From Eledone cirrhosa (lineage: Eukaryota), in assembly GCA_964016885.1 (NCBI GenBank), contig CAXHJY010001390.1:62001-126000 (forward strand): DNA of 64,000 nucleotides, given 5' to 3'. A program made the translations under genes and the position numbers. This document shows positions 37,672 through 53,519 of the stretch, in pieces. Under the pieces are notes generated by a model that saw only the letters and a program-made list of their open reading frames with translations, did no database searches and was not told the origin of the DNA. Numbering within the stretch: position 1 is the first letter of the stretch; the number at the start of each line of letters is the position of its first letter.

Positions 37672-38797
37672 GTCGTTTCTGAATTTGTTTAGCAAGATTC
37701 TTTATCTGAAATCGTGTGTTGAAACCGATATTGTTATACTTTGGGAGGGTCATGTTGCCAATAAGAAACACACGCACCAGTTGCTTTCACTTCAATTTAT
37801 TATATATTTATAAATTTATGAATTTACAAGTTTACAAACTTCTAAATTTCTGGTTGGTTGGTTGGTTCCACAACCAGATAGTTGTTTATATATATAGTCA
37901 TAGTCCTTCGTCACAACTCTGTGACCTCTTCAGTGACTGGGGATTCCTTTCTTCGTTTCTGTGCCTTTCCTTTCTTCTATCCTACGCCATTTTGTTTCTG
38001 TGTGTGTGTTGTGTGCTCAGTTTGCGCATGCGCCACATCCGGGTGTCTGTGTGTGTTTGTGTTCATTTTTCTATTTTTTCTATTTATATTTTTCTCTATT
38101 TGTTTATTTATTTATTTATTTATTTATTGTTGGTTGGTTGTTTGTTCTATGTGTGTGTGTGTTTTCATTTTGTCCTGTGTGTGTTTTCAATTGTAAGTTG
38201 TTTGTTCTATGTGTGTGTGTGTTTTCATTTTGTCCTTAATTGTAAGTTGTGATGTTGCTGTTCCACTCATATTTTCTATTTAATTTTGGTTTTAATTCTT
38301 TTATGCTTATTGCCTCTGTAATTTGCCTAAACATTGCGTCTTTTCTGTGTGTGGATTCTATTTTTATTTCTATGCTCTCTAATCTACCCCTGTGTTCTAT
38401 CTTAGCATGTTGGTAGAGCACAGATGATTCTTTATTATCTTGGAGGTCTCGCCAGTGTTCATTTATTCGTTCCCCTATACTACGAGCTGTCTCACCTATG
38501 TACACTATATTTTTGTTTCTACATTGTCCTTCAGTACATCTTATGCTATACACTACATTTCTAGTTTTACAGTTAATATGGGGGCTTATTTTACAGGTTA
38601 TACATTTCTTATCTATACATGAGGGTCTTTGGAACGGGTATGTCTTGCTAATAAGTGTTTTTACGGAGGAACCAGGTCTTTCTACTATCTTAATATTGAG
38701 ATTATGTTTATTTAGGGCCCTTCTAAATTTGTAGGCTAGTTCGCCTCTAGGGGTTGTATTGATGAACATTATTGATGAACATTGTATAGATAAGAAA
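37672..38797 (-). mobile_element. 5'-truncated PLE (non-Naiad, possibly Neptune-like), GIY-YIG end plus pLTR/tail
   Basis: 38236-38797 encodes [12 protein letters not shown]...[17 protein letters not shown]...EAISI...PKLN; HHR in the UTR; homologous to the 51600-53519 element. Confidence 0.88.
37896..37938 (-). ncRNA. Minimal hammerhead ribozyme variant
   Basis: Minus strand: agtca CTGAAGA g gtcaca-gagt-tgtgac GAAGG-a-CTA tgact (GAAG instead of GAAA). Confidence 0.65.
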
Positions 38798-40075
38798 TGT
38801 ATATATATATATGTATATATATATATGTATATATATATGTATATATATATATATGTATATATATATATATGTATATATATATATGTATATATATATATAT
38901 ATGTATATATATATATATGTATATATATATGTATATATATATATATGTATATATATATATATGTATATATATATGTATATATATATATATGTATATATAT
39001 ATGTATATATATATATATGTATATATATATATGTATATATATATATATATGTATATATATATATATATGTATATATATATATATATATATATGTATATAT
39101 ATGTATATATATATATATATGTATATATATATATATGTATATATATGTATATATATGTATATATATATATATATATGTATATATATATATATATATATAT
39201 GTATATATATATATATGTGTATATATATATATATATATATATGTATATATATATATATATATGTGTATATATATATATATATATATATATGTATATATAT
39301 ATATATATATATGTGTATATATATATATATATATATATATGTATATATATATATATATATATGTATATATATATATATATGTATATATATATATATATAT
39401 ATATATGTATATATATATATATATGTATATATATATATATATGTATATATATATATATATGTATATATATATATATATATGTATATATATATATATATAT
39501 ATATATATATATATATATGTATATATATATATATATATATGTATATATATATATATATATATATATATATATATATATATATATATATATATATATATAT
39601 ATATGTATATATATATATATATATATGTATATATATATATATATATATATATATATATGTATATATATATATATGTATATATATATATATGTATATATAT
39701 ATATATATATATATATATATATATATATATATATGTATATATATATATATATGTATATATATATATATATATGTATATATATATATATATATATATATAT
39801 ATATATATATATATATATATATATATATATGTATATATATATATGTATATATATATATATGTATATATATATGTATATATATATATATGTATATATATAT
39901 ATATATATGTATATATATATATATATGTATATATATATATATGTATATGTATATATATATATATATATATATATATATATGTATATATATATATATATAT
40001 ATATATATGTATATATATATATGTATATATATATATATGTATATGTATATATATATATATATATATATATATATG
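38798..40075. repeat. (TA)n microsatellite, ~1.3 kb, TG interruptions only
   Basis: Direct reading. Confidence 0.99.
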
Positions 40076-40180
40076 TGTGTGAAGTAATTCCATCGGAAAA
40101 GTCCAGGAAAAAAGAGTGCTCTATGTATGCAACAGAGCTTAATTATTATTATTATGTAATAAACAACATAAGGCAATTAT

Positions 40181-40238
40181 TCCATTTACCAGTGGTTTCT
40201 TAAAAGCAAAAGGTTTTGCTTTCAATCCTCAGAATGAA
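40181..40238 (-). ncRNA. Type I hammerhead ribozyme (Naiad family 3, distal)
   Basis: Minus strand: ttcatt CTGAGGA ttgaaagcaaaa-cc-ttttgcttttaa GAAAC-cactg-GTA aatgga. Confidence 0.88.
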
Positions 40239-41640
40239 AAATCCTGGTTTGTTTATTGAATCTGGATTCTAAAAACAAAAATGCAATCTATATTAAAGTG
40301 AGGCTGGAAAAGGGAGAAGGAAAGGAAAAATAAAATAAAACTACACATGCAAACACACACATAAAAACACAAAAGCATACTAACACACACATACATATAT
40401 ACACATACATATAAATGTACGCATACACATATACACATACACACATATATATATATATATATATATATATATATATATATATAAAGAGCGTACACCTACA
40501 CACACATACACATATATACACACATATACACATACATATAGTCATACATACACACACACACACACACATATATACACACATACACACACACACACATACA
40601 CACACACATATATATACACATGTACATATCCATATATATATACATATATATATATATATATATATATATATATATATATATACATATACACACATATACA
40701 CACACACACACACACACACACACACATGTGTGTGTACAAGCATACACATACACACACACATATATATATACACACACATATACATACATTCACAGAAACA
40801 TACAACGTACATACATACACATACATGAATGCACTCCACTACATATTAACACACGCAAATAAATAGAAGAAAAAAATATATAAATATATATTAACAACAT
40901 TTTTGACAGCGATACATGCCCCAGCTAACAGGACAGACACGCGTGGTAAGTAATACACACATAAGCACATATACATACGTTCGAAATAGTAAACACATAC
41001 ACACACTCTCACACATAAATATACATATACAAATACATAAACACGTACATACACATACATACACAAACACGTACACGTATACAATATAAACACACACATA
41101 TATATGTAATTATATACACACACACACACACATATATATATATATATATATATGTATATATATATATACATACATATATATATATATACATACATACGAA
41201 AATATAAAAATATAAACGCACACACACATATAAATACGTAAACACACATATACATACATAGCTAAACAATTATACACATGCAAATACGTATATATCAAAA
41301 GAACGCACAACCAAATACAAACACACACACATATACACACACACACACACCCACACACAAACCCACGCATACATAAAAATGAATAAATACACACGCACAC
41401 ATATACATACATACACATACATATACATATATACATATATACATATACATACATATATATACACATATATATATAAATATACATATATACACACATACAC
41501 GTACACATACACACATGCATACACATACACACACACATATACATGTGTGTATGTGTAAAGCTCAGTATTAGATAAGACAAATGAACCTTACACAAACGTA
41601 TATATAGTAGTAAAGTAATAAAGCCATACAAGGCAATTAA

Positions 41641-51873: not shown

Positions 51874-52953
51874 CTGGAAAGCATCCAGCAGATAGCTAAT
51901 TCCATACACCAGAGTATAACTGTAACTATAGACTTCCCTTCCAAACACCCTAACAATAGACTACCTGTATTAGACACAGAACTCTGGATTAACACTATAG
52001 ACGAGAGAGCCCAAATTCTCCACTCACACTATGCTAAACCCATGGCCTCCAAATACCTGATACTCAAAAACTCAGCAATGTCCAGTAGTGCTAAGTTTAA
52101 TATTCTGATCGCAGATTTGGTACGAGTGATGAAGAATGTGTCCAGCATGTGCGACCCAACAGAAATGGAAGGACACATCCAACACTTCATCAACCGCATG
52201 CAGTTCTCTGGCTACAACCAAAGAGACAGAGTCAGAGTATACGAAGGAGCCATGGAAAAGTATAAGACCCTCATAGAACTGGACATGAAAGGAATTTGCC
52301 CACTATACAGGAGCAAATCATGGAATAGCTTAGATAGGGCTAGACATAAGATAGGGAAGGCCACATCATGGTACGACAACCAGAGATATCAGAGTGTCAT
52401 GTTTGTGGACGCCACCCCTGGAGGGAAATTAGCTAACCAGTGTAGAAAGGCCCTGAGAAAGACCCACTTAAAAATAAAGGTGGTAGAAAAGCCAGGAACC
52501 ACCATAAAATCCCTGATCAGCAAAACCTACCCTTTTAAGAAAACCCACTGTACCAATAGGAAATGTATCATATGTAAGGTGAACCCCCGGATAAACTGTA
52601 AAACTAGAAACGTAGTCTATAGCATAAGATGTACAGAGGGTACTTGTAGAAACACGACAACAACATACATAGGTGAGACAGCTCGTAGCATAGGTGAAAG
52701 GATAGACCAACACTGGGGGGAACTAAAAGGACGAAAAAACGGGTCAGTACTATACGAACATGCTAGACAACATCATGACGGTAACATAGACAACATAGAA
52801 ATTAGAATAATATCTAAACATAGGAATGACCCAGCAGATAGGCAAATCAGAGAGGCCAGTGAAATAGAAATTAGAAGACCAAAGCTAAACAGAAAGAATG
52901 AGTGGAACAACAACAACACCCAAACAAACAACACTGACCTAAGAGAAGTATAA
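51874..52953 (+). CDS. PLE RT C-terminus + GIY-YIG endonuclease (5'-truncated, open)
   Basis: [57 protein letters not shown]...PKLN. Confidence 0.85.
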   Translation: MESIQQIANSIHQSITVTIDFPSKHPNNRLPVLDTELWINTIDERAQILHSHYAKPMASKYLILKNSAMSSSAKFNILIADLVRVMKNVSSMCDPTEMEGHIQHFINRMQFSGYNQRDRVRVYEGAMEKYKTLIELDMKGICPLYRSKSWNSLDRARHKIGKATSWYDNQRYQSVMFVDATPGGKLANQCRKALRKTHLKIKVVEKPGTTIKSLISKTYPFKKTHCTNRKCIICKVNPRINCKTRNVVYSIRCTEGTCRNTTTTYIGETARSIGERIDQHWGELKGRKNGSVLYEHARQHHDGNIDNIEIRIISKHRNDPADRQIREASEIEIRRPKLNRKNEWNNNNTQTNNTDLREV

Positions 52954-53203
52954 ATAAATAAGTAAATTAAATTAAATAAAATAAGATAAATAAATACATA
53001 CACAAGCACATAAACACACACTAGTCACCCAGCAGACACAACACTATACACACTAGTCACACATCACACACGCAAACGCATGCGCAAAGAAGACAAAATA
53101 AAATAAGATAAACAAACAAGCAAACAAATAAATAAATATATAGACGGACTGAACAAAAAAAATGGCGTAGACATACAACACAACAGGAGGAACAATGAAT
53201 ATA

Positions 53204-53248
53204 ACACCACTGACGATGTTGCAGATGTGCAACGAAAGATTTATGTAA
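53204..53248 (+). ncRNA. Minimal hammerhead ribozyme (mutated mirror copy at ~51810-51856)
   Basis: CTGACGA t gttgca-gatg-tgcaac GAAAG-at-TTA; stem I weak. The inverted copy has GAAA>AAAA. Confidence 0.65.
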
Positions 53249-53519
53249 ACTATATATATATGTGTTTGTCTATATTGTATCTGTATTATTTTATTTTTGA
53301 CCGCCGGTCAGTCAATGGCAACATTGAGGACCGAGTAAGTTAGATCGCAGATATATATATATAAAAGACAGCGAGAAGCGAAAACCAACCAAACAGTGAG
53401 TGTGTTCTGTTATTAATTCTGGCAATATTACGCAAATATGACCCTCCCCAAATATAACAATATCTGTTTCGACACACGATTTCATATAAAAAACCTCGCA
53501 AAACTAATTCATCGCCGCT

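Follow-up and report, generated by a model that had tools for sequence, protein, structure and literature searches.

The Penelope elements described in PMC3846280 carry direct and inverted copies of a pseudo-long terminal repeat (pLTR) that holds the first 12 amino acids of the open reading frame (ORF), or the first 22 when an optional tail is included; here and below, statements on published work refer to excerpts of the papers cited. In Penelope-like elements (PLEs), a promoter sits in the pLTR of partial tandems (PMC2377424), minimal hammerhead ribozymes occur in the pLTRs of metazoan members (PMC4209133), and the tail, the inverted copies, and the targeting of (TA)n runs are general traits of the group (PMC8557442). 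The anole element PAc (Poseidon of Anolis carolinensis) nicks both strands of AT-rich DNA, and its reverse transcriptase (RT) starts in vitro inside the ORF, at two sites bounding the tail (PMC11167929). Here, we analyzed a 64,000-nt window of Eledone cirrhosa DNA (GenBank assembly GCA_964016885.1, contig CAXHJY010001390.1, positions 62,001 to 126,000), an AT-rich animal setting in which retroelement fragments are packed between long (TA)n runs, focusing on a 27-codon peptide that recurs at the 3′ tails of two diverged PLE remnants, elements A and B. These codons are very probably the N terminus of the PLE ORF, carried in the pLTR plus tail of an element that targets (TA)n. This is an ordinary PLE feature, possibly of an undescribed subfamily.

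Anatomy of elements A and B and selection on the shared codons

Both peptide copies start with ATG and run for 27 codons (copy A, minus strand, 37753-37673; copy B, plus strand, 53438-53518), exactly where the initial annotation had placed them, and the peptide frame is the only one of the six that is free of stops in this stretch. The copies are identical at 66 of 81 nucleotides and 21 of 27 residues. Their differing codons comprise precisely the seven synonymous changes already listed in that annotation plus six replacements, with the nucleotide differences distributed 3/2/10 over the codon positions. Nei-Gojobori estimates (NG86, codons 2-27) of nonsynonymous (dN) and synonymous (dS) divergence were 0.133 and 0.687, respectively; dN/dS, the check proposed earlier, was therefore 0.19 for this pair, below 1 (Fisher p 0.004). 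The GIY-YIG ORF remnants upstream of the peptide are 71% identical over 513 nt, and dN/dS in this ORF body is 0.20 over 176 aligned codons, which indicates equal selection on the peptide and on the protein of the element. Peptide variants in run X1 were synonymous at five of the six positions listed (p 0.002 for all changes and 0.018 for transitions only).

Two other readings of the conserved stretch were also weighed. Preservation mainly as an RNA signal, such as an RT docking site to which the peptide would be incidental, could account for the higher A/B nucleotide identity in the stretch (81%, versus 71% in the ORF body) and would be in keeping with the requirement for the first 172 nt of the anole element ORF for activity (PMC11167929). 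However, the differences fall mostly at third positions, a stable fold is not predicted for the tail, and the peptide shows no extra synonymous constraint, since same-residue codons differ in 7 of 20 cases in the peptide and in 44 of 102 in the body (p 0.62); we regard this explanation as highly improbable. The initial annotation had also entertained a micro-ORF under selection, which would then be an autonomous unit of the 3′ tail with translation driven by the pLTR promoter; the ATG, the open frame, the dN/dS of 0.19, and the failure of protein searches to return a longer protein that starts with the peptide would all suit it. Nevertheless, no copy has a stop of its own before (TA)n, a third copy (C, below) keeps 9 codons only, dN/dS equals that of the ORF body, the peptide aligns to the N terminus of a long homolog, and the anatomy is already accounted for in PMC3846280, all of which makes a separately selected micro-ORF very unlikely. 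The other proposal of that annotation, in which the element ORF would begin with the tail as part of a permuted or tandem arrangement, is supported and corresponds to a published PLE feature (PMC3846280 and PMC11167929).

The coordinates of the two elements are given in Table 1. Read on the minus strand, A consists of (TA)n, 21 nt of its own ORF in inverted orientation, the ORF remnant, the untranslated region (UTR), the peptide, and (TA)n. The order in B is (TA)n, inverted pLTR, 5′-truncated ORF, 3′ UTR, direct pLTR, 55-nt tail, and (TA)n. The B ORF is 59% identical to A over 176 aa, and its closest homolog, labelled Octopus vulgaris by its source, is 63% identical. Pfam returned no match for B, and the A ORF fell just under the cut-off for PF01541 (E 1.5e-4; 22.4 bits against 22.6). 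Blastn comparison of the A and B tails (565-569 nt) yielded a sole alignment, the 77-nt peptide stretch, which agrees with the earlier remark that the adjoining UTRs barely align; even so, each UTR holds a minimal hammerhead motif. The distance from stop to ATG is 483 nt in A (37753-38236) and 485 nt in B (52953-53438) although the spacers barely align, and this near equality may be due to chance.

Hammerhead cores were located by a pattern scan at 37933 (minus strand) and 53210 (plus strand), among five places in the window. The 6-bp stems II of A and B differ in two pairs, and the changes are compensatory. Both motifs match the descriptor of PMC4209133, sharing with its hammerheads the CUGAnGA core, the extra base before stem II, G10.1-C11.1, a long stem II, and a tiny stem III. 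Unlike the published examples, A carries an atypical G at 15.1, the A and B motifs are invisible to Rfam, and their cleavage is only predicted. Rfam detected no hammerhead in the A and B tails, and its whole-window output contained TA-driven miRNA noise among the 150 of 328 matches listed.

Table 1. Coordinates of the features of elements A and B (positions in the 64,000-nt window).
Position	Strand	Feature	Remark
37561..37672	.	(TA)n run, 3′ end of A	Likely host target
37673..37753	-	Probable first 27 ORF codons of A	Terminates pLTR plus tail; long end at +81 to +83
37896..37938	-	Minimal hammerhead-like motif of A	CUGAAGA, additional G, stem II of 6 bp including G10.1-C11.1, GAAG; ATG 180 nt downstream
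38236..38766	-	5′-truncated ORF of A	GIY-YIG endonuclease preceded by CxxC linker
38783..38803	+	21-nt inverted copy of A ORF bases 38599-38619	At 5′ junction of A
38800..40074	.	(TA)n run, 5′ side of A	
50968..51600	.	(TA)n run, left end of B	
51597..51876	-	Copy C, inverted pLTR of B	First 9 codons; short end, +26; ATAT microhomology
51877..52953	+	5′-truncated ORF of B, 358 aa	Covers RT thumb region, linker (C-x4-CxxC-x7-C), and GIY-YIG-type nuclease
53184..53463	+	Direct pLTR of B, portion common with C	Includes ATG at 53438
53205..53248	+	Minimal hammerhead-like motif of B	CUGACGA, additional U, stem II of 6 bp, GAAA; ATG 228 nt downstream
53438..53518	+	Probable first 27 ORF codons of B	
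53464..53518	+	55-nt optional tail	Short end (+26) to long end (+81)
53519..55923	.	(TA)n run, right end of B	Likely host target

Two ends of the copies and the adjoining (TA)n runs

The third copy of the peptide, C, was recovered by tblastn at 51622-51597 (minus strand), where it joins (TA)n at codon 9. It forms the end of a 280-nt inverted repeat of the B tail region that is 99.6% identical to B, the sole difference turning the hammerhead GAAA into AAAA. C thus reaches (TA)n 55 nt earlier than B, which defines a short end (+26), a long end (+81), and an optional tail of 55 nt that is present at the right end of B and missing from C. After codon 27, A continues as CATATA and B as TATATA. Consequently, the identical endpoint claimed for A and B holds to within ~2 nt, but it is not unique, as C ends at codon 9; the precise 3′ end deduced from it, also a published PLE feature, stands in the form of at least two ends, +26 and +81, rather than a single point. 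An intron directly after codon 27 was considered and rejected, with a GT donor there in neither A nor B.

Both window ends recur in public run X5, in a comparison that set aside the repeat at 52900-53153. One contig departs at 53463 into ATATAT (+26, as in C), and a second matches 53453-53530 with zero differences (+81, as in B). The raw Hi-C runs X21 and X22 gave a single, uninformative read each. Other PLE-like repeats of the window behave likewise, with common ends at (TA)n in 1138/61140, 4903/7199, and 27445/61612 (85% identity) and pairs of long and short ends delimiting tails of ~161 and ~67 nt; a common end before (TA)n is therefore frequent in this DNA.

The (TA)n runs themselves are likely the host target and not a product of the element. 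An encoded (TA)n run after codon 27 would give a poly-Tyr-Ile extension, as the initial annotation had considered, or a templated TA tail, and A and B do reach (TA)n at the same codon with the frame open throughout. Openness is trivial, however, because (TA)n is free of stops in either frame, and read-through into the runs would give 69, 361, and 236 aa in the three copies, lengths that are as expected from random insertion into arrays of unequal length. Moreover, C meets (TA)n 55 nt sooner, A and unrelated retroelements in the window are likewise truncated at their 5′ sides next to (TA)n, and a 2,965-nt contig from run X1 (see below) goes 2.36 kb beyond the peptide and would probably be unable to span a long TA run. 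An encoded (TA)n is, on these grounds, scarcely credible.

At its 5′ side, A ends in the 21-nt inversion of its ORF, which terminates on TATA microhomology with the flanking (TA)n, and the junction looks like an aborted second priming. A 13-nt tandem duplication also lies beside the inversion in this junction (38757-38803).

N-terminal homology and a model for the retained codons

Residues 6-26 of P0020, an 815-aa homolog, were the best window for both peptides (rank 1 of 75; shuffle p 0.002 and 0.0002), and the start of P0004 was the best window for B (rank 1 of 105, p 0.008). At the level of sequence, this homology lends modest support to the assignment. Record 7 of run X1 is the 2,965-nt contig mentioned above, in which the peptide match (bases 516-609) is followed by 2,356 nt more. 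Furthermore, a relative with 35% identity, L002, is arranged head to tail, its ORF ending near 2211 and the next one opening at 2441, ~230 nt past the stop. The L002 junction (2212-2460) comprises a ~250-nt spacer without the canonical hammerhead pattern, and neither a pLTR repeat nor a hammerhead pattern was found in the loci L001 and L003.

Wider searches were largely negative. Phmmer with a 34-aa frame returned no match among 1.84 billion representatives, none of 59 candidate longer proteins carried the peptide when queried with the two-peptide alignment, and residues 1-170 of P0020 recovered only P0020 itself among 159 candidates. The best ESM Atlas score with the peptide (0.77) was at noise level, and a DNA pattern of the first codons had no match in metagenome and viral contigs. 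Scans for related loci confirmed 3 of 601 metagenome candidates (9 of 64 parts covered), 0 of 15 viral ones, and 0 of 46 prokaryotic ones.

Several observations weigh against reading the peptide as the ORF start. Among the six long homologs tested, P0020 alone is clear for both peptides and P0004 for B only; the P0016 window ranked 11 of 111 with B and 37 of 111 with A, and P0014, P0018, and P0019 gave no N-terminal signal. When the position was left unconstrained across 20 proteins, an internal stretch of P0016 (326-348) equaled P0020 (p 0.006 and 0.02), and hhalign assigned a probability of 5.2% (E 0.0075). That source copies have the peptide and the RT in one frame is inferred. As for the ends, a third contig of run X5 departs at 53486 into other sequence, the evidence on the spread of ends covers 12 of 221 loose ends, and the 55-nt tail exceeds the usual 30-40 nt. 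Finally, the ATG is found 180-228 nt downstream of the hammerhead here, whereas the two overlap in PAc (PMC11167929).

With these points taken into account, the assignment of the codons to the ORF N terminus would fit the following model, each step of which, priming and second-strand synthesis included, is conjectured by analogy with the anole element. Transcription of a source copy in a partial tandem would run from pLTR and hammerhead across the ORF and on into the following pLTR and ORF start. A (TA)n run would then be nicked by the GIY-YIG nuclease, and RT would begin a few codons inside the downstream ORF, preferring either of two sites (+26 or +81). A second priming off the other strand could generate the inverted copy; the optional tail would correspond to the 55 nt that separate the RT starts. 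In this model, each insertion would keep the peptide at its 3′ end as a result of RT initiation that likely takes place inside the ORF, a location suggested here by the ends of the copies. The signature of selection on the peptide codons would come from their encoding the start of a functional protein in the source copies.

Besides a protein-bound structure, what fixes the two sites may be short AUAU/UAUA words of the element RNA with which the nicked (TA)n primer would pair, a refinement compatible with the ORF-start assignment to which we give slightly less than an even chance. The N-terminal codons (Asn-Ile at +22 to +26 and perhaps His/Tyr-Ile after codon 27) would then set the same ends in diverged families. 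Alternating-AT overlap was present at four junctions, amounting to 4 nt (C), 5 nt (21167), 2 nt (46275), and 4 nt (21-nt inversion of A); the corresponding background shares were 0.029, 0.009, 0.18, and 0.023, with a post hoc Fisher combined p of 6e-4. These are the junctions with known continuing element sequence, so that the bases past +81 are not among them. In record 8 of run X1, the alignment goes 8 nt into the TA run before 22 unaligned letters, and predicted folding of the first 81 nt was not better than that of shuffled sequences (z +1.33 and +0.25). On the other hand, there are just four junctions, picked after looking and drawn from three families, and the microhomology might stem from second-strand joining or repair rather than RT priming. 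The overlaps with (TA)n hint at primer-template pairing, unlike in the anole element.

Relationship to described lineages and neighboring elements

The locus has the C-terminal GIY-YIG nuclease and RT in one ORF that characterize endonuclease-bearing PLEs, RT core and linker occurring in one protein in 19 of 20 homologs (P0020 stops earlier). B displays the 280-nt inverted pLTR (99.6%), truncated ORF, direct pLTR, and optional tail of the group, and the pLTRs of A and B contain the hammerhead motif, as a pattern match with predicted activity. Kinship of the RT to telomerase RT was evident in a homolog 45% identical to B (P0003), the window copies being without the core: its model (pLDDT 80.5) had Candida telomerase as the top Foldseek match (E 1.2e-6), and the VIA fold search gave telomerase at Z 15.2 (root mean square deviation 5.0, 332 aligned), with a diversity-generating retroelement RT near (Z 14.1).

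Direct plus inverted pLTR, a tail at one end, and a probable ORF start in pLTR and tail are shared with Pen2a_Av and related Penelope elements of Adineta vaga (PMC3846280). Unlike these, which retain 12 and 22 aa and have a 31-nt tail, the present copies retain 9 and 27 aa with a 55-nt tail, are inserted in (TA)n without a readable target-site duplication, and have a CxxC linker preceding the nuclease. PAc likewise shows two ends within the ORF, a tail between them, an AT-rich target, and a pLTR hammerhead. However, RT in PAc starts 111-118 nt into the ORF, at a stem-loop that is rich in AC and shows no homology to the cut DNA (PMC11167929), whereas the ends here are +26 and +81, the short one coincides with an ATAT overlap with the target, and a stem-loop is not predicted.

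Nematis and Neptune (PMC8557442) resemble A and B in the C-terminal GIY-YIG domain, the CX2-5CxxC linker, and the CCHH-type residues. By eye, the short C-x4-CxxC-x7-C linker of A and B is similar to the Nematis rows in Fig. S2 of that paper, which ties microsatellite targeting to this linker in Neptune. The absence of an insertion between RT3 and RT4, as in Nematis, did not extend to the relatives of our elements, a comparison made on homologs rather than window DNA. The interval from the RT3 Asp to the RT4 Gly measures 126-132 aa in 20 of 20 homologs (P0001-P0020; the closest 63% identical to B), versus ~62 aa, counted by eye, in the Poseidon and Nematis rows of Fig. S1, and the excerpted text of PMC8557442 describes canonical PLEs as lacking an insertion in the fingers. 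RT4 of the homologs reads GG[AP]IG. The ~70 extra residues in all 20 homologs stand at what would be the position of the telomerase insertion in fingers domain (IFD), in a PLE with a C-terminal nuclease. The region is modeled in P0003 mostly as confident helices. Affiliation with the Hydra clade (CxCx5C linker, no CCHH, DKT) is contradicted by CxxC in A and B and DKS in the homologs, and the C-terminal nuclease differs from the N-terminal one of Naiad/Chlamys. Among the ESM Atlas neighbors of P0004, two carry DUF8422, RVT_1, and HTH_animal, and one is mostly nematode.

A short-motif search in the excerpted supplements of PMC8557442 and PMC13282606 gave no match, the portion of preprint 10.64898/2026.07.22.740005 consulted adds nothing on ends, and a literature search that covered neither Repbase, Arkhipova 2006, nor an octopus consensus library (which may already hold the family) found no description of the combination of linker, insert, and priming. 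It is conceivable, though rather unlikely, that A and B belong to a lineage of C-terminal-nuclease PLEs that has yet to be described, marked by ~70 additional residues at the IFD position and by telomerase-like priming, in which nicked (TA)n anneals to AUAU words in the conserved N-terminal codons and thereby fixes +26 and +81 across families ~30% apart.

Other repeats also occur in the window. A Hydra-type PLE (21167-27445 plus 61612-62008; CxCx5C linker, DKT) is flanked by a 2.2-kb inverted copy; its ends differ by ~161 nt, the short one coincides with an ATATA overlap of 5 nt, and the long one recurs in a copy that is 85% identical. Another Hydra-type ORF is enclosed in a nested inverted structure (40075-46275) that has hammerhead-like cores at 40232 (minus strand) and 46185 (plus strand) and, at one end, a ~67-nt tail holding AGAGCACTCT. 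At 2259-4716 there is a near-full-length Hydra-type ORF with (TA)n almost directly before its start and an Asn-rich linker ahead of the nuclease, and a GIY-YIG PLE remnant at 4903-7199 sits between inverted repeats of 367 nt whose ends before (TA)n fall on the same base. A young long interspersed element (13243-20549 plus 46945-48283) encodes an APE-RT ORF2 and a Gln-rich ORF1 with CCCH-like repeats; it includes an inverted 2.7-kb copy, arranged tail to tail about a (TA)n run, as well as a third 3′ copy, all ~99% identical and bounded by (TA)n. Tandem units of ~700 nt alternate with (TA)n, (TG)n, and (AG)n runs at 34586-37054. After the (TA)n run of A comes, spotted by eye at 37400-37560 (minus strand), what we take to be the head of a tRNA-like short interspersed element.

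An ORF start within pLTR and tail is a published PLE hallmark and adds little alone. The same long end in two families that are 29% apart in the nuclease provides a natural comparison for the choice of RT start site, a question left open after PMC11167929 in the part of that work cited here. The TA overlap at the short ends and the insert in the RT fingers of the relatives bear on microsatellite targeting and on the link to telomerase, both of which are named as open in the excerpted text of PMC8557442.

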